DNA of 64,000 bases from Candidatus Hydrogenedentota bacterium (GCA_019455225.1 JACFMU010000006.1:7561-71560), one strand, 5' to 3'. Shown: positions 37,828-48,464, counted from the first letter of the stretch. Notes: generated by a model not told the origin, from the letters alone. Numbers and translations are program-made.

Positions 37828-38940
37828 TCAGATGCGGATGGGCATCACCACATTCACATAACTGTCTGAAGGCGCGTCCGTGTAAGGCTTGATGATGCCG
37901 GGACTGCTGGTGTCTTTGAGCAGCAGGCAGACCTTTTCGGTGTCAATGTTGCGCAGCACATCGAGAATAAACGCGGGGTTGAAGGCAATCTCCACGCTGT
38001 CGCCGTCATATTCGACCGGAGTGCAGTCCTCGTATTCGCCCACTTCCGGGGTTTTCACGATGACCCGCATCATGCCGCTCTCAATAGCCAGACGGACATT
38101 GCGGAAACGGTCGTTGGTCATGGCCAGGGCAAGACGCATGATCCGCTCGAAGGCCTCCACTGTGAGCGCAATTTCCTTGTCGTGTTTCTTGGGGATGACT
38201 GTCTCGTAGTTTGGAAAATTGCCCTCAATCAACGTGGAGGACGTGGTGAGATTTTTCATGAAGAAGCCAATCTGGCTTTCCTCGACACAGACACCGACCG
38301 TCTGCTCATCATCCGAACCAAGAAGCGACAGCAACTCGTGGATCATTTTGGCGGGAACAATCACCTTGAAGTCCTGCGATGAATCCATGAGATCGTCCGT
38401 CTTGGCGAGGCTCATGCGGCGGCCGTCAGTCGCCACCACGGTCAATATCCCGGCCTTGAATTCAAGGAGAAGACCGGTCAGGTTGTAGCGGGACTGATCG
38501 GTGCAGATGGCGAACACGGTCTTTTGAAAGAGTTTCTTCAGCATTCCCTGCTTAAAGACCATCGGCTCCACATCCCCAAATTTCCGGATTGGGGGGAACT
38601 CTTCCGGAGGCATGCTGAAAAGCCTTGTCTCCATCTGGCCGCAGGTAAGGCTGATGACGTTGTTTTCCTGCAAGTCCAGGGTGATGTCGGCGTCTGGAAG
38701 CTCGCTCAGCAGCATGGCCAGACGCTGGCAGGACACTGTGAGCGCGCCGGGGCGCTCCACAGAGCAATCCACCACGCAGACCGTGCTAATCTTTAGGTCC
38801 GTGCCGGAAATGGTCACAGACGAGTCTCCCGTTTCCATCAGCACCTGCGTGAGAATGGACAGTGAACTCTTTGCGGCCACAACGCTCTTGAGCTTGCCAA
38901 CCGCTTCCTGTAAATCGTGTTTTGGGAGGGTGATACGCAT
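37828..38940 (-). CDS. dnaN: DNA polymerase III beta sliding clamp
   Basis: 370 aa with three beta-clamp domains. MRITLPKHDLQEAVGKLKSVV... is a typical DnaN N-terminus. Confidence 0.95.
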   Translation of the reverse strand: MRITLPKHDLQEAVGKLKSVVAAKSSLSILTQVLMETGDSSVTISGTDLKISTVCVVDCSVERPGALTVSCQRLAMLLSELPDADITLDLQENNVISLTCGQMETRLFSMPPEEFPPIRKFGDVEPMVFKQGMLKKLFQKTVFAICTDQSRYNLTGLLLEFKAGILTVVATDGRRMSLAKTDDLMDSSQDFKVIVPAKMIHELLSLLGSDDEQTVGVCVEESQIGFFMKNLTTSSTLIEGNFPNYETVIPKKHDKEIALTVEAFERIMRLALAMTNDRFRNVRLAIESGMMRVIVKTPEVGEYEDCTPVEYDGDSVEIAFNPAFILDVLRNIDTEKVCLLLKDTSSPGIIKPYTDAPSDSYVNVVMPIRI

Positions 38941-39645
38941 TCGGTGTCTCCGTCAAGCCCCTGCGTGGGGATAAGTTTTGTCTCTTTATATGGGAATTGT
39001 TGTTTATAGATCAAGTCTTAAGAGTAATAGGCCTGTTAGGACTCTTAATAACTGTTTTAAGTTGTTTTATTGCAACGGGTTGTCCAGTGGATAGCATGGG
39101 GATGGTTTTGCCAGTCCAGTCCCTCTTATCCCCATTCCCTGTGGAAGCGGTCATGACCCTTTGGATTAACCCTGAAAAATGTGGAGAAACAGCCAAGGTT
39201 ATCCAGATTTTGCCCGTGTTTTCTCCACAAGTGGTCTTGCAGTGATGTTCCACGGATTTTTTTGGCCTGTTATCCACAGGACATTTTCTTGCAAACATTC
39301 AACTTACATGATTTCCACGGGCTGTTGTCAACAGCGCGTGGAACGGTTTTCCATATCAGGAACAGACTCTTTTTACACCATGAAAAAAAATGTTGTAACA
39401 CACTGAAAATAAAGAAGTTATATAAAGAAATCTTTCCAGTCAAATGTGCCGAAAAAATTCTTTAAGTCAGTCTTTGCCAAGAAGTTGCGTCAAAGTCCGC
39501 ATCCATCAGGCCTGACGCGGGTGTGGTGCGATTCACCGCTTTTCCACAGTCTATCCACATTACGGTGGGCCGAACCTCACCCTGCCATGGACACATGCTA
39601 GCAAAGACACCTTGAAAAAGCAACCTATCTTGAGCAATGCGCCGC
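38941..39645. other. putative chromosomal replication origin (oriC): AT-rich region with a DnaA-box cluster upstream of dnaN
   Basis: Perfect DnaA box TTATCCACA at 39270-39278. One-mismatch boxes at 38966-74 (TGGGGATAA), 39180-88 (TGTGGAGAA), 39199-207 (TTATCCAGA), 39219-27 (TTCTCCACA), 39540-48 (TTTTCCACA) and 39551-59 (CTATCCACA). AT-rich putative DUE at 39361-39470. Gene-strand bias flips at this locus. Confidence 0.55.
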
Positions 39646-41700: not shown

Positions 41701-42162
41701 ATGGGCGAAAAAATCATCACCACCAACCGCAAGGCGTTCCATGAGTACCATGTGCTGGACCGCGTCGAGGCGGGCATAGCGCTGCAGGGCACCGAGGTGA
41801 AATCCCTGCGGATGAAGGGCTCCATGCAGTTGAAGGACTGCTATGTGGACTTCGAGCGGGGCGAGGCGGTCCTGGTGGGGGCGCACATCAGCCCCTACGA
41901 GATGGGGAACATCTACAACCACCCGCCGGAGCGCCCGCGCAGGCTGCTGCTTCACAAGCGGGAAATACTGAAACTTTCCGCGAAGGTGGCGGAGAAGGGC
42001 CTGACCGTGGTGCCGTTGAGCGTGTATTTCAAGAAGGGCCGGGTGAAGATAGAACTGGGGCTGTGCCAGGGCAAGCACACCTTTGACAAGCGCGCCTCCA
42101 TCAAGGAGCGGGAAAGCCGCCGCGAGATGGACCGCGCGGTCAAAATGGTCAGGCGGGGGTAG
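41701..42162 (+). CDS. smpB: SsrA-binding protein
   Basis: IITTNRKAFHEYHVLDRVEAGIALQGTEVKSLR...LLLHKREI is the canonical SmpB sequence. Confidence 0.95.
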   Translation: MGEKIITTNRKAFHEYHVLDRVEAGIALQGTEVKSLRMKGSMQLKDCYVDFERGEAVLVGAHISPYEMGNIYNHPPERPRRLLLHKREILKLSAKVAEKGLTVVPLSVYFKKGRVKIELGLCQGKHTFDKRASIKERESRREMDRAVKMVRRG

Positions 42163-42167
42163 GGGCC

Positions 42168-42599
42168 GTGCAGCGCGCGCAGGGCGGCGCACGCCCGCTT
42201 CTGGTCGGGCGGCCGATCCAGATTCAGCCGTATGACATAGACTTTGCGGCCCATGTGAACAACGCGGTGTATGTGCGGTGGCTCGAGGACCTGCGCATGG
42301 ACATGCTGCGCGCCTACTGTCCCATGCGCCCGCTCATGGAGGAGGGCCTCGCGCCGGTCGTCGCCGCGACGCACATCCGCTATGTAAAGCCGCTGAAACT
42401 GTTCGACGCGCCCGTGGGGCGCATGTGGTGCGCCGAGATGGGCCGGGCGACGCTCACGCTGGAGGCGGAGATTGCCGTGGGGGACACGGTTTACACCGCC
42501 GCGACGCAGCGCGTGATGATGGTCAACTGGCAAACGGAAAAGGCGGCCCGGGTGCCGCTGGAACTTCGGGAACGATTCGCGCGGGAGGCGGGGCCATGA
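42168..42599 (+). CDS. acyl-CoA thioesterase (hotdog fold, 4HBT/YbgC-like)
   Basis: IQPYDIDFAAHVNNAVYVRWLEDLRMDMLRA is a hotdog thioesterase signature. GTG start. The stop overlaps a truncated CMD-like ORF. Confidence 0.75.
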   Translation: MQRAQGGARPLLVGRPIQIQPYDIDFAAHVNNAVYVRWLEDLRMDMLRAYCPMRPLMEEGLAPVVAATHIRYVKPLKLFDAPVGRMWCAEMGRATLTLEAEIAVGDTVYTAATQRVMMVNWQTEKAARVPLELRERFAREAGP

Positions 42600-42675
42600 C
42601 CAGACGGACCGGGAGCGGGCGGATGGAGCCCTTCAAGAAAAGGACCTACCGGAGTTTTGGCGAGTTGTGGCGTTG

Positions 42676-42760
42676 CAAGCCTGCGGAGAGGCAATGTAGG
42701 CCTGCAATGAGGCGTTGCAGGCTTGAAACGAGGCATTGGAAGCCTGAAATACGACTGATG
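42676..42760. repeat. four degenerate ~21-bp tandem repeats at the island junction
   Basis: Units CAAGCCTGCGGAGAGGCAATG / TAGGCCTGCAATGAGGCGTTG / CAGGCTTGAAACGAGGCATTG / GAAGCCTGAAATACGACTGATG. They follow a 75-bp fragment homologous to the CMD gene start at 46925. Confidence 0.5.
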
Positions 42761-43070
42761 AAACGAGAGGAAAGGCTCATAAACACAACACTGACAGAAG
42801 GATACGAATCATGGCGCAATTTCCGAGGGACCGAAGCCCAGTGGATGGACTGTAAGGATGAGGTTCTTATGCCTATCCGCATAACATGCCGAGCGAAATG
42901 GAATGGCAAACGACAAGGCACTGAAAGAAGAAGACTTATTGCGACTTTGGGGAGTTTCCCAAAGGGGTCTTATCCGGACAGGAACGAAGAAACCTGCATC
43001 TTATGCGGGTCCATCTAATTATTGTTAGCCCGAAACTACGTCAAGGAAACCCAAGGAAGCCAATTGCGCC

Positions 43071-44270
43071 ATGGAAAGCAAGTCGCTGAACCGAGGCCTC
43101 GGCGCCGCGAAGGCGGCCAAACAGGACGAGTTCTACACCCAGTACGTCGACATCCAGAAAGAGGTCGAGGCCTACCTGGAGTTCGACCCCGACACCTTCC
43201 GCGACAAGGTCGTTTACTGCAACTGCGACGACCCCTTCGAGAGCAACTTCTTCAAGTACTTCGCCGCCAACTTCAACAAGCTAGGCCTCAAGAAGCTCAT
43301 CACCACCAGCTACGACGGCTCCCCCATCGCCGGTCAGCTCACCTTGTTCCCGGAATACGACGAGGGGAATGGCAAGCGCCAGAAGCCCAAGGCGCTCGCC
43401 GTCATCCTCGACCATGTGAAAGATGAGGACGGAGACGGCGCGGTGAACATAGACGACGTGAAACTCTTTCTCAAGCGTAACAAGGCCGCACGGATAGCCT
43501 TGAAAGGAGAAGGCACGTACCCCGGCGGCGACTTTCGCAGCCCCGAGTGCATCGCGCTCCTGAAAGAGGCGGACATTGTCGTCACCAACCCACCCTTCTC
43601 CCTCTTTCGCGAGTACGTCGCGCAACTCGTGGAGCACGGGAAGAAGTTCCTCATCATTGGGAACAAGAACGCGATCACCTACAAGGAGATATTCCCGCTC
43701 ATCAAGGAGAACAGGCTATGGATGGGAGTAACGCCGATGGGCGTCGACATGCTCTTCGACGTACCAGAGCGAGTAGCGAAAGCGATGGTCGCTGCGGGAA
43801 AAAAGGGGAGCAACTACAGGATCGTCAACGGCAAGGTAATGGGCCGGTCTACTTCGGTCTGGTTCACAAACCTGGACCATGGCCGCCGCCACCAAAAGCT
43901 GCCCCTCATGACCATGGAGGACCACTTAAGGTTCAGTAAACACAAGGAGATCAAGGGCAAGGCGGCCTACGACCGGTACGTCAACTACGACGCAATCGAA
44001 GTTCCGTACACCGACGCGATCCCCAGCGACTACGATGGCGTCATGGGCGTCCCCATCTCTTTCCTCGACAAGTACAACCCTGACCAGTTCGAGATTCTGG
44101 GATCAAGCATGACCCTCAGTGTTCCGATGTCCCAGTTCGCAAAAAAGGGAAGCTACTTGCAAGGCGGGCCGCGTTTCTACATTGACAATGGCGACGGAAG
44201 TTATCGCCGGATGTACGACAGAATCGTCATCCGCCACCGCGCCCGGACAGCAACAGGGAGGAAAAAGTGA
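43071..44270 (+). CDS. N6-adenine DNA methyltransferase, EcoRI-methylase-like family
   Basis: N-terminal [16 protein letters not shown] block (DEFYT), catalytic NPPF motif ([14 protein letters not shown]), and 399 aa. Lower GC than flanking DNA. AGGAAG RBS upstream. Confidence 0.75.
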
Positions 44271-45436
44271 AGACCACGCTAAGAACCGACATCACGGTCG
44301 CCGATATCTGCGACGAGTTTGTGTACAACGATTTTGAGGGCAAAGGGTTGTTCGGGCTGAGCGGAAAGCTCACCATCCAGCCGGAGTACCAGCGCAACTA
44401 TATCTATAAGGACATCGAAGGCGGCAAGAAAGAGCAGGATGTGATCCATTCGCTGCTCAAGGAGTATCCGCTCGGGCTGATCTACTTCAACAAAGTCGGC
44501 GAGGACAAGTTCGAGGTGCTGGACGGCCAGCAGCGGATCACCAGTATCGGACGGTTCGTTACGAACAAGTTCGCGATCATGGATAACGGCAACCCGAAGA
44601 ATTTCGACAGCCTGCCCGCCGACCAACAAGCCACGATTCGGGACTCGAAATTGCTGATCTACGAGTGCGAGGGCACGGAGACCGAGATTAAGCAGTGGTT
44701 TGAGACGATCAACATCGCGGGCGTGCCGCTCAAACCGCAGGAACTCTTGAACGCCATCTATTCCGGCCCGTTCGTAACCCTTGCGAAGACGGAGTTCAGC
44801 AACAGCCAGAACGCGAACATCCAGAAGTGGAGCGCCTATGTCAGGGGCAGCGCGAACCGGCAGGAGTTCCTGGAGCGGGCGCTGGACTGGGTGAGCCAGG
44901 GCGATATCGGCGGCTACATGAGCGCTCATCGCAACGACAAGAGCATCAATGAGCTGAAGACCTACTTTAACAGCGTGATCGACTGGGTTTCAACCGTGTT
45001 TGTCGACGTTCTCCCAGAAATGAAGGGACTGGAGTGGGGCAGGTTGTACGAGGAGCACCACGGCAAGTCCTACGATCCAAAGAAGATGTCGGACGATGTA
45101 AAAGAACTCGCCGCCGATGACTGCGTGAAGAGCCGCAAGGGAATTTTCGAGTTTCTATTAGGCGGATTCGTCGATACGAAGTTGTTGGACGTCCGGGTGT
45201 TCGACAAGCCGGTAAAGCGGGCCACATACGATAAGCAGACGCAAGCCGCCGAGGGCAAGGGCGAGTCCAACTGTCCGCTCTGCGCGATTGGGCACGATGC
45301 GAACCAGAGTAGGATCTATAAGTTCGAGGAAATGGACGCCGACCACGTTTCCGCGTGGAGCAAGGGCGGCGAAAGCTCCGCCAAGAACTGCCAGATGCTC
45401 TGCGTTACCCACAATCGGGCCAAAGGTAATCGATGA
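44267..45436 (+). CDS. DUF262 (ParB-like nuclease fold) - HNH endonuclease fusion protein
   Basis: N-terminal DUF262 signature [18 protein letters not shown]-terminal HNH motif CPLCAIGHD...[13 protein letters not shown]...[18 protein letters not shown] start overlaps the methyltransferase stop (GTGA). Confidence 0.8.
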
Positions 45437-45732
45437 TATGGGCGTGCTACAGCCCGGCGCGCCCCCTCATGGAGGAGGGGCTTGCGCCGGTCGTCGCCGC
45501 GACGCACATCCGCTACTTGAAGCCGCTCAAACTGTTCGACGCGCCCATGGGGCGGATGTGGTGCTCCGAAATGGGCCGGGCGACGCTGACGCTTGAGGCG
45601 GAGATTGTGGTGGGGGACGCGGTCCACACCACCGCGACACAGCGCGTGATGATGGTCAACTGGCAAACGGAAAAGGCGGCCCGGGTGCCGCTGGAACTGC
45701 GCGAATCCTTCGCGCGGGAGGCGGGGTTATGA
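45433..45732 (+). pseudogene. truncated duplicate of the acyl-CoA thioesterase 3' portion
   Basis: Bases 45450-45732 are about 90% identical to 42330-42599. The fragment encodes only the C-terminal ~95 aa (PLMEEGLAPVVAATHIRY...), begins at the stop of the HNH gene, and lacks the catalytic N-terminal half. Confidence 0.6.
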
Positions 45733-46928
45733 TGGGGCAACAAGAGCGGCGGGCGCTGCTCCGGATGAAACCGGAGACACTGTGGGAGGGCGAGCCGCGC
45801 CTGGGCAGCGCCTACGGCGAGGAGGAAATCGAGGCGGCGGTGGCGGCGATGCGGGACTCGCGGGACGTGGGCCGGGGCTTCTCCGGGCCGGAGATTGCCG
45901 CGTTCGAGGAGGCCTTCGCGGCCTATGCGGGCACACGGCACGCGGTGGCGCTGAACAGTTGCGGGCCGGGCCTGGACTTGGCCATGCGCATGCTGGACCT
46001 CCAGCCGGGGGACGAGGTGATTGTCCCGGCGATAAATTTTGTGGCGTCGCCCCTGGCGGTGGCGGGCGCGGGCGGACAGGTGGTGTGGGGCGAGGTGGAC
46101 CCGGCCACCCTGCAACTGGACCCGAACGACGTGGAGCGGCGCATCACGCCGCGCACACGGGCCATTTTCCCGGTACACATGAACGGGCTGGCGGCGCCGA
46201 TGGATGATTTTCTGGAGCTGGCCCGGCGGCACCCGCATGAAAAACACGGGCCGCCGGCGGTCATCGGCGACGCGGCGCGGGCCTGCGGCGGGGAGTACAA
46301 GGGGGAGAAACTGGGCAAACACGGGTTGCTGACGGTCTTTTCGTTCCACACCATGAAGAACATGGTGACCCTGGGCGAGGGCGGAATGGTGACGACCGAC
46401 GACGACGACGCGGCGCGGTTCATCCGCTCGTCCCGCTTTTTCGGCTTCGACGACATGGAGCGGTGGGGCTCGTCCTTTGTGATGACGAATGTGCAGGCCG
46501 CCGTGGGGCTGGTGCAGTTGCGGAAACTGGACGGGTTCATCGCGGCGCGGCGGCGCCTGGCCCGCGACCGGACGGAAATGCTGGCGGGCGTGCCGGAGCT
46601 GACCCTGCCCCATGAACCGCCGGACTGTCTGCACACTTATTACTTATACACGTGTCTTGTGTGCCGGGAATGGGCCGGGGAGACGCGGGACCGCCTGATG
46701 CGGATAATGGACGAGCGCTTCGGCGTGCGCCTGCTGGTGGCGAACAGGCCCGCCTATGAGGCGCACGCCTACCTGCGGCGGCACACGGCGGGGCAGTCGC
46801 TGCCCCTGTCGGAGGAGCTGGGCGCGCGGCTGTTTTGCATTCCGACGCATCCGGCCATGTCCGACGAGGACAACCGGTACATCGCGGCGGCCATAATCGA
46901 GTGCGTGGAGACACTGCGCGGGGAATGA
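45729..46928 (+). CDS. DegT/DnrJ/EryC1/StrS family PLP-dependent aminotransferase (ArnB-like)
   Basis: 399 aa. Motifs GDEVIVPAINFVASP and FSFHTMKNMVTLGEGGMV (PLP Lys region). Confidence 0.9.
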   Translation: MMGQQERRALLRMKPETLWEGEPRLGSAYGEEEIEAAVAAMRDSRDVGRGFSGPEIAAFEEAFAAYAGTRHAVALNSCGPGLDLAMRMLDLQPGDEVIVPAINFVASPLAVAGAGGQVVWGEVDPATLQLDPNDVERRITPRTRAIFPVHMNGLAAPMDDFLELARRHPHEKHGPPAVIGDAARACGGEYKGEKLGKHGLLTVFSFHTMKNMVTLGEGGMVTTDDDDAARFIRSSRFFGFDDMERWGSSFVMTNVQAAVGLVQLRKLDGFIAARRRLARDRTEMLAGVPELTLPHEPPDCLHTYYLYTCLVCREWAGETRDRLMRIMDERFGVRLLVANRPAYEAHAYLRRHTAGQSLPLSEELGARLFCIPTHPAMSDEDNRYIAAAIIECVETLRGE

Positions 46929-47431
46929 CCCGCGCCGGGAGCGCGTCCATGGAGCCCTTCAGGAAAAGGACCTACCGGAGCTTTGGCGAGTTTGCCGCCG
47001 ACCTGCGTCATCTTTGGGCGCGGCGGAAACAGGTGCGCAGGCTGACGAGCGGGAAGGGGCTTGACCCGGCGTTTCGCGAGCGCATCATGCTTGCGGTGAC
47101 ACGGGTGAACGCGTGCCGGTTCTGCACCTTCGCGCACAGCCGCGCGGCGCTTCAGGCGGGCATGACCAGGGGCGAGGTGGACACCCTGCTGGGCGGCGGA
47201 TTTGGGGACTGTCCGGAAAGCGAGCTGCCCGCCGTGCTCTATGCGAAGGACTGGGCCGAGGCGGGCGGGACGCCGGACCCGGAGGCGGAGCGGCGTCTGG
47301 CGGAGACCTACGGGGAGGAGGCCGCGGCGGACATTTTGCTCGCACTCCGCATCATCCGCGCCGGAAACCTCACGGGGAACACGGTGGACTGTTTTCTGCA
47401 CCGTGTCTCGTTTGGCCGCCTGGGAAAGTGA
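46925..47431 (+). CDS. carboxymuconolactone decarboxylase (CMD/AhpD-like) family protein
   Basis: VTRVNACRFCTFAHSRAALQAG matches the CxxC/H motif of AhpD-like CMD proteins. ATGA overlap with the DegT-like gene. Confidence 0.75.
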   Translation: MTRAGSASMEPFRKRTYRSFGEFAADLRHLWARRKQVRRLTSGKGLDPAFRERIMLAVTRVNACRFCTFAHSRAALQAGMTRGEVDTLLGGGFGDCPESELPAVLYAKDWAEAGGTPDPEAERRLAETYGEEAAADILLALRIIRAGNLTGNTVDCFLHRVSFGRLGK

Positions 47432-47456
47432 GTTTGTTCTGCTATAATCGCCGCCT

Positions 47457-48464
47457 ATGAAACTGATCATACAAATCCCCTGCTACAACGAGGAGGCGAC
47501 GCTGGGCGTCGCGCTGGACGCGCTGCCCCGGTCGGTTCCCGGCGTGGATGTGGTCGAGTGGCTGGTGGTGGACGACGGGTCCACGGACCGGACGGCGGAG
47601 GTGGCGCGGGGGCACGGCGCGGACCATGTGGTGCGGTTCCGCGCGAACAGGGGTCTGGCCAGCGCGTTTATGGCGGGGCTGGACGCCTGCATCACCCGCG
47701 GCGCGGACATCATCGTGAACACGGACGCGGACAACCAGTACAACGCGGGGGACATTCCGGCGCTGATTGCGCCCATCCTGCGGGGCGAGGCGGAGATTGT
47801 GGTGGGGGCGCGGCCCATCAATGAAATACAGCACTGGTCCATGCTGAAGAAGCTCCTGCAAAAGGCGGGGTCCTGGGTGGTGCGCATGGCCAGCCGGACC
47901 AATGTGCCCGACGCGCCGAGCGGTTTCCGCGCCATGACCAGGGACGCGGCGCTGCGTCTGAACGTGTTCGGCGAGTACACCTACACCCTGGAGACCATCA
48001 TCCAGGCGGGCCGGAAAAACATGGCCATCACCTCCGTGCCGGTGCGGACAAACCCCGACCTGCGGCCCTCGCGGCTCATACACAGCATACCCGCGTACCT
48101 GCGGCGCTCCCTGTTCACCATCGCGCGCATTTTAATGACCTACCGGCCCTTCCGTTTCTTTGCCATCCCCGGCGCCGGGCTTTTCCTGCTCGGAACGCTT
48201 CCCGCCCTGCGCTTTCTCTATTTTTACTCGCAGGGGTACGGCAACGGGCACATCCAGTCCCTGCTCTTCGGCATTCTTTTCATGGGCACCGGCGCCGCCC
48301 TGGTGGTGGTGGGGCTCCTGGCCGACCTGGTGGGGGTCAACCGGCAGTTGCTGGAGGAAGTCCGGTGGCGGCTGCGCCGCATGGAACTGCGGCTCCAGGA
48401 AGAGCGGACGGAGGGGGAGAAAGGGGAGGCGCAACAGGCCGGGGGGGAGACTCAGGGAAGGTAG
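47457..48464 (+). CDS. family 2 glycosyltransferase, polyprenyl-phosphate sugar transferase type (ArnC/GtrB/DPM1-like)
   Basis: IQIPCYNEEATLG...VVDDGSTDRT...TDADNQ GT-A motifs plus two C-terminal TM helices. Confidence 0.85.
   Translation: MKLIIQIPCYNEEATLGVALDALPRSVPGVDVVEWLVVDDGSTDRTAEVARGHGADHVVRFRANRGLASAFMAGLDACITRGADIIVNTDADNQYNAGDIPALIAPILRGEAEIVVGARPINEIQHWSMLKKLLQKAGSWVVRMASRTNVPDAPSGFRAMTRDAALRLNVFGEYTYTLETIIQAGRKNMAITSVPVRTNPDLRPSRLIHSIPAYLRRSLFTIARILMTYRPFRFFAIPGAGLFLLGTLPALRFLYFYSQGYGNGHIQSLLFGILFMGTGAALVVVGLLADLVGVNRQLLEEVRWRLRRMELRLQEERTEGEKGEAQQAGGETQGR

Follow-up and report, generated by a model that had tools for sequence, protein, structure and literature searches.

A putative Type II restriction–modification cassette that probably entered a Candidatus Hydrogenedentota chromosome with homologous DNA of a sister lineage

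Restriction–modification (RM) complexes have reportedly been found inserted with long target duplication, in work said to be that of Nobusato and colleagues in 2000, and homology-facilitated illegitimate recombination during the uptake of foreign DNA is said to have been reported by de Vries and Wackernagel in 2002. Campbell-type single-crossover insertion-duplication involves a circular molecule that carries a homology arm. The insertion of RM complexes with long target duplication is a published pattern (Furuta, Abe and Kobayashi 2010, PMC2853133), for which the criteria were homologues of R and M, an insert of <20 kb without mobility genes, direct repeats of >30 bp, and a single-copy match in an insert-free relative (PMC2853133). 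The repeats of each published case hardly differ from one another (e.g., 417/423) and lie at the same distance from the genome used for comparison (PMC2853133). Furuta et al. (2010) also proposed "release and re-invasion" steps for RM systems and stated that evidence for them was lacking (PMC2853133). Homology-facilitated illegitimate recombination is also described in PMC3240628.

The locus compared here with these systems lies in a 64,000-nt stretch of a Candidatus Hydrogenedentota bacterium genome (GCA_019455225.1 JACFMU010000006.1:7561-71560), hereafter the window, in whose coordinates all positions are given. Our preferred explanation, with a probability of about 0.68, is that an RM cassette was inserted between a thioesterase gene (TE) and a DegT gene together with homologous DNA of a sister lineage, via a circle or a repeat-flanked unit and chromosomal recombination. 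The gene calls at the locus were supported by a Pfam profile search, and the features are as follows:

41701–42162, + strand: smpB, resident left flank (Pfam SmpB, E 4e-58)
42168–42599, + strand: intact 4HBT-type acyl-CoA thioesterase gene (TE), resident allele (Pfam 4HBT_2 and 4HBT)
42329–42599, + strand: left repeat copy, the 3' 271 nt of TE, resident type (267/271 vs. L001 and L002)
42500–42509, + strand: donor-type patch of three sites within the otherwise resident left copy
42600–46845, + strand: entire tract of donor origin (CMD 5' fragment, X, M, R, TE 3' fragment, DegT)
42596–42666 (71 nt), + strand: 5' fragment of a CMD-family gene, donor type, its ATGA shared with the TE stop
42596–43018, + strand: chimeric ORF, 24 CMD codons followed by read-through into the spacer
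42667–43023: spacer X, 357 bp, 49% GC
43024–45461, + strand: RM cassette core, delimited by nucleotide homology common to unrelated carriers and by GC
43071–44270, + strand: EcoRI-family N6-adenine DNA methyltransferase gene, M (Pfam EcoRI_methylase, E 1e-123; PADLOC MTase_II, E 2e-100)
44267–45436, + strand: DUF262 (GmrSD_N) plus HNH endonuclease gene, R (Pfam GmrSD_N and HNH; PADLOC REase_II, E 3.5e-92, full length)
45462–45732, + strand: right repeat copy, a donor-type 3' fragment of TE without codons 1–53
45729–46928, + strand: intact DegT/perosamine-synthetase-type aminotransferase gene (Pfam DegT, E 6e-87)
46925–47431, + strand: intact CMD-family gene, resident type (Pfam CMD)

The empty-site set comprised six contigs of related lineages (L001, L002, L003, L005, L095, and L126). 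The first four carry an uninterrupted smpB–TE–DegT–CMD–GT2 order without the cassette, L095 (a ~87% lineage) carries TE–DegT–CMD–GT2, also without it, and in L126, a short contig that ends within DegT, DegT directly follows TE. A sequence-only reading of this DNA had called for such a synteny comparison, and the cassette-free, uninterrupted order is what the comparison returned. The SmpB protein of the window is identical in L001, L002, L003, and L005, the intact TE (annotated at NCBI as MBW7863121.1) matches L001 at 428/432 nucleotides, and the resident CMD gene is 97% identical to that of L001. Compared with these relatives, there are five mismatches in the last 1,400 nt of the left flank of the tract and six in 500 nt of its right flank, and collinearity with the empty-site relatives extends for at least 8.6 kb in the left flank and at least 4.5 kb in the right. 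The surroundings of smpB are often variable; for example, a Type I RM system sits beside this gene in L123 and L125. Additionally, the locus is a mosaic at the population level, with CMD and GT2 switching between L001-type and L002/L005-type blocks, and the window holds further patches that are ~10% diverged, such as 38198–38397.

The inserted non-homologous DNA spans 42667–45461 (2.8 kb) and contains only M, R, and an ORF without a family. The start of R overlaps the stop of M as GTGA, and, as expected of a Type II RM system, the two genes are adjacent, co-oriented, and co-occurring across genomes; judged by its domains, the DUF262–HNH protein is a putative Type II restriction enzyme. M precedes R in 27 of the 28 other cassette loci, the pair is also found on plasmids, and the search for a solved or characterised homologue of either the methyltransferase or the endonuclease returned none. 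The cassette (43077–45461) shares 88% nucleotide identity with L088, L089, and L091, and homology to L087 and L092 begins at 43024–43025. Its GC content is 56.6% in the core and 49% in spacer X, against 64.6% for the window. The spacer opens with a 21-nt tandem repeat of three to four units (42666–42750); it shows no similarity to the DNA upstream of the cassette in the 28 other carriers, and searches of it gave no Rfam match, no protein family, and no promoter above background. Pfam and PADLOC detected no recombinase gene in the tract, and neither 42667 nor 43024 forms an inverted repeat pair with 45461, as the ends of an IS or transposon would. Among the 28 other cassette contexts, flanking direct repeats were only weak or short, the best being 185 nt at 76% in L103; therefore, insertion with long target duplication is not a habit of this cassette.

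Two pairs of direct repeats bracket the insert, both far beyond chance. The repeat search paired 42314–42599 with 45447–45732 (286 nt, 89%), and BLAST paired 42326–42599 with 45459–45732 without gaps (274 nt, 90.1%, E 5e-107), in agreement with the ~90% identity of the TE 3' repeat estimated in the sequence-only reading. The TE homology proper begins at 42329 on the left and 45462 on the right; bases 45437–45461 were assigned to the cassette because they are common to unrelated cassette carriers (L088). Over these limits, 244 of the 271 positions are identical between the copies. The second pair joins 42609–42666 to 46935–46992 (58 nt, 90%), or, with three gaps in BLAST, 42588–42666 to 46918–46992 (79 nt, 85%, E 1.5e-18). 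The claim that the sequence following the first TE copy is a diverged CMD start was thus borne out: from the ATG onwards, the fragment can be aligned with every CMD start compared, in frame and with one extra codon, and its ungapped 58 nt (42609–42666) are 88–90% identical to resident CMD starts. The junctions likewise read as had been proposed, TE–CMD start on the left and TE fragment–DegT–CMD on the right.

The ancestry of these pieces differs. The left TE copy matches L001 at 267/271 positions (98.5%), and the right copy at 240/271 (88.6%), with codon differences from the relatives of 13–15 synonymous and 9–10 non-synonymous, and no stops, frameshifts, or indels. DegT differs from L001 at 103 of 1200 nucleotides (~9%; 65 synonymous and 21 non-synonymous codons) and is of the donor allele up to 46845, its final ~80 nt being identical to the relatives. 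Accordingly, the mismatch profile stands at 5–16 per 100 nt over 45462–46845 and then drops to 0–1. The homologous parts of the tract are thus ~10–12% diverged from the relatives, with adjoining flanks that are far closer. The synonymous bias, the intact DegT, and the in-frame CMD fragment suggest that the foreign alleles evolved as working genes. DegT distances (window vs. L001, 103 nt; window vs. L095, 160; L001 vs. L095, 117) place the donor in a separate lineage.

Donor-type DNA runs unbroken on both sides of the cassette, in the circularly permuted order CMD 5'–X–M–R–TE 3'–DegT, with resident DNA outside; therefore, the left TE copy is the resident allele and the right copy the donor allele. 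Because the two copies are a resident and an imported allele, "segmental duplication", the label given in the sequence-only reading, is a misnomer. That reading was right to involve a related donor allele and to argue against a recent target-site duplication; its option of an old rearrangement failed, the extension of the tract through DegT to 46845 escaped it, and so did the mechanistically informative feature, the permuted order in which the donor pieces surround the cassette. The left copy is not wholly resident: at the patch sites it agrees with the right copy (A, AA), in contrast to L001, L002, L005, and the outgroup L095 (G, GG). The patch (42500–42509) is assigned to the 59-nt identical run between the TE copies (42507–42565), and it reflects either gene conversion between the copies or heteroduplex repair; in both cases, the two TE copies have interacted.

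The data show the insertion, its empty sites, the ancestry of the individual segments, their precise limits, and the lack of a recombinase gene; from there, we infer a circular or tandem intermediate, an order of events, and a route of DegT loss as follows. The cassette (the EcoRI-family M and the DUF262–HNH R, with the 357-bp spacer ahead) would have arrived within ~10–12% diverged homologous DNA, on a molecule carrying the cassette and one contiguous homology arm, from TE nt 161 through DegT to CMD nt 71. This molecule may have been a circle, or an equivalent repeat-flanked arrangement may already have existed in the donor. A single (Campbell-type) crossover would then generate the observed permuted order, which is the structure described as insertion with long target duplication. 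On the right, the exchange maps to the last ~80 nt of DegT, with the point mapped to 46845–46950. On the left, the joint lies in the ATGA (4 nt) by which stop and start overlap, and both partners carry GCGGGG two bases before it; this junction microhomology can be read directly in the sequence. The left arm holds TE 3' and CMD 5' and is missing DegT, so the two complete arms predicted by the Campbell model are not found. As a Campbell event alone predicts a complete left arm with DegT, this account must invoke a further deletion or an illegitimate join. The resident DegT expected in the left repeat may have been a redundant copy that was later deleted through microhomology; alternatively, entry may have occurred in one step by homology-facilitated illegitimate recombination, the right end being exchanged through homology and the left end joined illegitimately.

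When compared to the described systems, the locus resembles insertion with long target duplication in its R and M pair lacking a mobility gene, its insert of <20 kb (2.8 kb here), its repeats of hundreds of bp (271–274 and 58–71 nt), and its GC content below that of the host, and the repeats align to single-copy sequence in the insert-free L001, L002, L003, L005, and L095. It differs in that its repeats are 90% identical, the left being resident and the right of donor type, and in that the duplicated segment would be 1.55 kb, with a left copy that lacks the DegT portion. A Campbell insertion is matched by the circularly permuted arm, by the resident outer and donor inner segments, and by the exchange point at 46845–46950; however, there is no replicon or plasmid backbone, one arm is incomplete, and the circle would have to be deduced from the arrangement. 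Homology-facilitated illegitimate recombination shares one end in homology (the DegT end), a second end at a 4-nt joint with ATGA and GCGGGG microhomology, and the replacement of the resident DNA between the joints (DegT), but it needs a CMD fragment already to the left of the cassette in the donor; here it is indistinguishable from a deletion at a later time. The junctions also recall integrative islands that bring a copy of the 3' end of the gene (tRNA, tmRNA, or protein-coding) targeted by their integrase, in that one junction has an intact gene and the other a displaced 3' fragment; here, however, there is no integrase, the polarity of ancestry is reversed, and the repeats are 10% diverged without an identical core. 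Movement of a cassette with homologous flanks is a known route, seen here in an unusually clear form.

On the preferred reading, the locus would give a view at base-pair resolution, from an uncultivated phylum, of a defence cassette without mobility genes passing between diverged lineages, carried by homologous DNA and recombination machinery that belong to the host itself. Because the repeats differ in ancestry, an arrival on donor arms can be told from an in-place duplication; the near-identical repeats of the published cases do not allow this. A further and tentative suggestion, which we regard as possible rather than probable, is that the 3,133-bp unit (TE 3', CMD 5', spacer, M, and R) is a present or recent recombinase-free circular RM form with a chromosomal homing arm, moved between ~10% diverged lineages by excision through the flanking repeats and Campbell-type re-entry. 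If true, it would be a natural footprint of the "release and re-invasion" of an RM life cycle. Regarding annotation, the thioesterase fragment and the chimeric CMD ORF are by-products, as had been proposed: ORF 45433–45732, a 99-aa "hypothetical protein" at NCBI (H3C30_01775, P0248), is a thioesterase C-terminal fragment by Pfam, and ORF 42596–43018, without a Pfam or PADLOC family, is probably a by-product of the junction as well. The DegT gene of the strain is a foreign allele.

Among the other explanations, the least poorly placed, though still unlikely, invokes two independent events, namely an allelic replacement of the TE 3' end and DegT from a diverged lineage and a separate cassette insertion that fell by chance at the tract edge. 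Such replacements are plausible in a locus that is visibly mosaic in the population and in a window with other ~10% diverged patches, but this account leaves unexplained both the donor-type CMD 5' fragment beyond the cassette and the existence of a second TE 3' copy, and it has to contend with donor-type DNA that is continuous on both cassette sides.

An assembly artefact, i.e., a strain chimera in the metagenome-assembled contig or a mis-threaded combination of an empty site and a free 3,133-bp cassette circle, appears somewhat less likely again. The source is a metagenome-assembled genome, and the threading of the two repeat copies relies on the deposited assembly and parsimony. In the k=31 graph, each of the two runs that are identical between the paired copies (32 and 59 nt) forms a 2-in/2-out node, exactly where the Logan contigs break, so threading as a circle and an empty site is topologically possible. 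However, these runs are shorter than ordinary read lengths, and the Logan contigs L004, L006, and L007 (SRR12344472), produced by a second assembler, are 100% identical to the window and cover both novel junctions; single contigs hold the resident TE end with the CMD fragment, and the cassette end with the donor TE fragment. As deposited, the left copy is resident-type bar the three-site patch and the right copy is all donor-type, whereas the alternative threadings turn both TE copies chimeric, and even under the circle threading the chromosome keeps the donor-type DegT.

An old in-genome segmental duplication at cassette insertion, with copies drifting ~10% apart, would account for two direct repeats that bracket the insert like a target duplication, and we consider it very improbable. 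Its divergence is wholly one-sided (left 98.5% vs. right 88.6% to the cassette-free relatives), the changes in the supposed pseudogene copy lean synonymous, without stops or indels, and the adjoining functional DegT is diverged to an equal degree. Moreover, relatives with 98–100% identical flanks lack the insert, so the insertion event is young. Least credible of all is integrase-mediated site-specific integration of a small island with the TE 3' end as attP, in the manner of islands targeting tRNA or tmRNA genes: the displaced 3' fragment at one end and the intact gene at the other resemble attL/attR and smpB neighbourhoods are often variable (L123, L125), but an integrase or other recombinase is absent from the insert and the non-collinear DNA, no tRNA or tmRNA gene lies within the window, neither an identical core site at both ends nor a cognate recombinase encoded elsewhere was found, the polarity is reversed in that the intact gene keeps its resident 3' end and the displaced fragment is foreign, and the foreign tract takes in a whole extra gene, DegT.

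The search for the donor returned no genome with the cassette at the TE/DegT locus. None of the closest other lineages (L095, L121, and L126) resembles the foreign alleles more closely than the resident lineage does, and the DegT homologue search gave nothing between 83% and the resident 90% cluster. With the TE fragment, L121 (95% at the amino acid level, only 89.8% in nucleotides) and L126 were retrieved, neither of which is the donor. A GTDB scan with DegT reached at most 81% amino acid identity, with the homologues in unrelated contexts, and a metagenome scan with CMD yielded two loci only, which were uninformative. In one more distant species, smpB–TE is kept and the downstream genes are different. 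A natural TE–CMD adjacency in the donor was considered and rejected, as L001, L002, L003, L005, and L095, from lineages ~10–14% apart, all have DegT in between. When L126 and L121 were checked for the same adjacency, the former showed TE followed by DegT, while the latter holds a DegT remnant between the two genes, reduced to ~110 nt at the 5' end and ~45 nt at the 3' end, and this remnant shows that DegT loss occurs naturally in the clade.

The region analyzed here lies on a contig of 72.8 kb from a metagenome-assembled Candidatus Hydrogenedentes genome deposited at NCBI, in which an intact 4HBT thioesterase gene (TE) is followed by a restriction-modification (RM) cassette and by a second, partial TE. 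The sequence-only reading had described repeats of about 90% identity around this cassette, and pairwise BLAST recovered them as described: 42326–42599 matched 45459–45732 over 274 nt without gaps (90.1% identity, E 5e-107), and 42588–42666 matched 46918–46992 over 79 nt (85%, E 1.5e-18). Both pairs were also recovered by a separate repeat search of the window. The genes, assigned by Pfam, were the following:

41701–42162, smpB
42168–42599, intact 4HBT thioesterase (TE)
43071–44270, EcoRI-family adenine methyltransferase (E 1e-123), between the repeats
44267–45436, GmrSD_N/DUF262 and HNH protein, putative endonuclease, between the repeats (also PADLOC)
45433–45732, C-terminal fragment of TE
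45729–46928, DegT
46925–47431, CMD-family gene
next after CMD, GT2 gene

The putative endonuclease gave a full-length match to the PADLOC Type II REase model (E 3.5e-92), and the ORF at 42596–43018 matched no family in Pfam or PADLOC.

An exact SmpB protein look-up returned contigs L001, L002, L003, and L005, which come from other samples. All four carry smpB, TE, DegT, CMD, and GT2 without the cassette; they align with the window at 97.6–98.1% until 42599, and the alignment is picked up again at 45459. The more distant L095 (~87%) has the same gene order, and the synteny comparison proposed in the sequence-only reading gave an uninterrupted TE-DegT-CMD-GT2 arrangement in all five, and on the short contig L126 DegT lies directly after TE. 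Because the site is uninterrupted in these relatives and TE leads into DegT in L126, the cassette is a recent insertion.

The two TE copies have different ancestries. The left copy is identical to L001 and L002 at 267 of 271 sites and represents the resident allele, and the 1,400 nt leading up to the left junction carry just 5 mismatches to L001. Of the 271 sites in the right fragment, 31 differ from L001 and L002, and foreign-type divergence extends past the repeat, with 5–16 mismatches per 100 nt through DegT until 46845 and 0–1 thereafter. Codon changes in the TE fragment are 13–15 synonymous versus 9–10 non-synonymous with zero stops, those in DegT are 65 versus 21 with the gene intact, and the left CMD fragment represents an allele that keeps the frame, has one additional codon, and is ~10% diverged from all CMD starts compared; the foreign alleles bear the signature of evolution under purifying selection. 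For DegT, pairwise differences were 103 nt between the window and L001, 160 between the window and L095, and 117 between L001 and L095, distances that place the donor in a separate lineage, and homologue searches with DegT, the TE fragment, and CMD in GTDB and metagenomes returned no donor genome. These distances and the ancestry of the copies contradict in-place drift after an old duplication. Of the options raised from the sequence alone, recombination with a related donor allele was right, the right copy and DegT being foreign; an old rearrangement is at odds with the one-sided divergence, the purifying selection, and the separate donor lineage, and the term segmental duplication does not fit a resident allele paired with a foreign one. 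Inside the resident left copy, a three-site patch at 42500–42509 is of donor type, where L095 sides with the other relatives; this patch suggests that the two copies have exchanged sequence, and would mark either gene conversion or heteroduplex repair.

The foreign tract spans 42600–46845 overall, and the limits of the cassette core within it were set by comparison with unrelated carriers. Its parts are:

42596–42666, CMD 5' fragment
42667–43023, spacer, 49% GC, with a 21-nt tandem repeat at its start
43024–45461, cassette core, 57% GC versus 65% for the window
45462–45732, TE 3' fragment
up to 46845, foreign part of DegT

On the left, homology to the carriers L087 and L092 begins at 43024–43025, while on the right homology to the carrier L088 extends 25 nt beyond the endonuclease stop, to 45461, and TE begins at the next base. 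GenBank labels 45433–45732 as a 99-aa hypothetical protein (H3C30_01775), which comprises 10 residues from the cassette tail and the C-terminal 89 residues of the foreign TE, the N-terminal 53 being missing. No homologue of the 357-bp spacer was found upstream of the cassette elsewhere or in Rfam. At its left edge, right after the CMD fragment, 3–4 units of the 21-nt repeat (42666–42750, consensus GAGGCATTGCAGGCCTGAAAT) were located, and none of 28 other loci has this repeat upstream of the cassette.

Our preferred reading, to which we assign a probability of about 0.68, is that the RM cassette was imported together with donor homology arms, as an unusually informative case of an already known type of event. 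TE nt 161 to CMD nt 71, with DegT in between, forms one unbroken stretch in every genome compared. At this locus the donor form of that stretch is divided and lies in permuted order about the cassette, with the CMD 5' end on the left, the TE 3' end and DegT on the right, and resident DNA outside both. From this order we infer that a molecule bearing the cassette beside one contiguous homology arm recombined with the chromosome by a single crossover; the incoming molecule could have been a circle, or a donor arrangement with the cassette already bracketed by direct repeats of the arm. Kobayashi's group has described an outcome of this kind, for RM systems of all types, as 'insertion with long target duplication', and proposed it as one stage in the life cycle of RM units, which insert, are amplified or released via the repeats, and re-invade (PMC2853133). 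The right-hand exchange lies between 46845 and ~46950. The left junction, in contrast to a simple Campbell event, lacks the resident DegT: the joint is ATGA, where the TE stop overlaps the following start codon, and the sequences at the ends of TE (GGCGGGGCCATGA) and DegT (GCGCGGGGAATGA) have in common GCGGGG, two bases, and then ATGA. The redundant resident DegT may have been removed later by microhomology deletion, or entry may have occurred in one step, with homologous exchange at the right and an illegitimate join at the left. In the related lineage L121 (~89.5% nucleotide identity; 1206–1472), DegT has been lost, with ~110 nt of its 5' end and 45 nt of its 3' end remaining, which indicates that DegT is dispensable and variable in the clade; the deletion leaves an 88-aa fusion ORF between TE and CMD.

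Separate arrivals of the foreign alleles and of the cassette are unlikely, as two independent imports leave unexplained both why a donor-type CMD fragment lies beyond the cassette and why there is a second TE copy. An assembly artefact, in which an empty chromosomal site and a 3,133-bp circle were wrongly joined, is less probable still. Logan contigs assembled from run SRR12344472 show 100% identity to the window: L004 reaches to 42380, L006 covers 42536–45513 and contains both novel junctions, and L007 starts at 45669. The breaks fall exactly at identical runs of 32 and 59 nt common to both copies, which is how a genuine two-copy repeat should break in a k=31 graph. Taken alone, this graph would also permit the empty site and circle, but both repeat copies would then be of mixed ancestry, whereas in the deposited threading the left copy is resident-type save for the three-site patch and the right copy is wholly donor-type. 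On this assembly comparison, the integrated structure probably stands as deposited, with small residual doubt. Integrase-mediated integration is barely credible, given that there is no recombinase and that the polarity is wrong, the intact gene retaining its resident 3' end. A transposon origin was rejected, with neither terminal inverted repeats nor a short target-site duplication present, and a donor in which TE naturally adjoins CMD was looked for among the relatives and not found.

The cassette is highly mobile. Its endonuclease shares 85–89% identity with over 100 clusters of proteins belonging to Acidobacteriota, Planctomycetota, and further phyla, and the cassette itself occurs on contigs from other metagenomes (88% nucleotide identity), in 25 IMG/VR viral contigs, and on plasmids (~68% nucleotide identity). 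At this locus the cassette is accompanied by no integrase, transposase, terminal inverted repeat, tRNA, or tmRNA. Long flanking repeats were absent from the other copies (28 other contexts), so the mode of entry is a property of this event and not a habit of the cassette. Across the carriers compared (43071–45436; L087, L088, L092, and L096–L120), the DUF262-HNH endonuclease is better conserved between phyla (up to 89% aa) than its partner methyltransferase, which is mosaic, with blocks more than 90% identical broken by a replaced block at ~aa 225–262 and, in L087, a different C-terminus as well. Such a pattern is atypical of classical Type II pairs, and the mosaicism may reflect the swapping of specificity modules. 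In L088 (6838–8004), the methyltransferase of an 88%-identical cassette copy is out of register over ~aa 156–225, suggesting compensating frameshifts or an inactivated gene.

Regarding the neighborhood, 14 matches to the DnaA box TTATCCACA, with up to 1 mismatch allowed, occur in the window versus 4 expected by chance, 8 of the 14 being clustered at 38966–39559, a 39–45% GC intergenic region with dnaN on one side and a T2SSE/MshEN ATPase gene on the other; this is a likely replication origin, at a distance of ~3 kb from the insertion. On the right side of the foreign tract (46947–47646), blocks of L002/L005, L001/L003, and L005 type alternate every few hundred bases, pointing to frequent homologous recombination in this population. 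Among strains of a more distant species that has the conserved smpB-thioesterase pair, L123 (1–5043) and L125 (331–3302) have a Type I RM system (HsdR, PDDEXK_3, HsdM/S) directly upstream of smpB, and ferritin and heme-biosynthesis genes occupy that position in others (L122 and L124); RM genes may have landed repeatedly in the smpB neighborhood.
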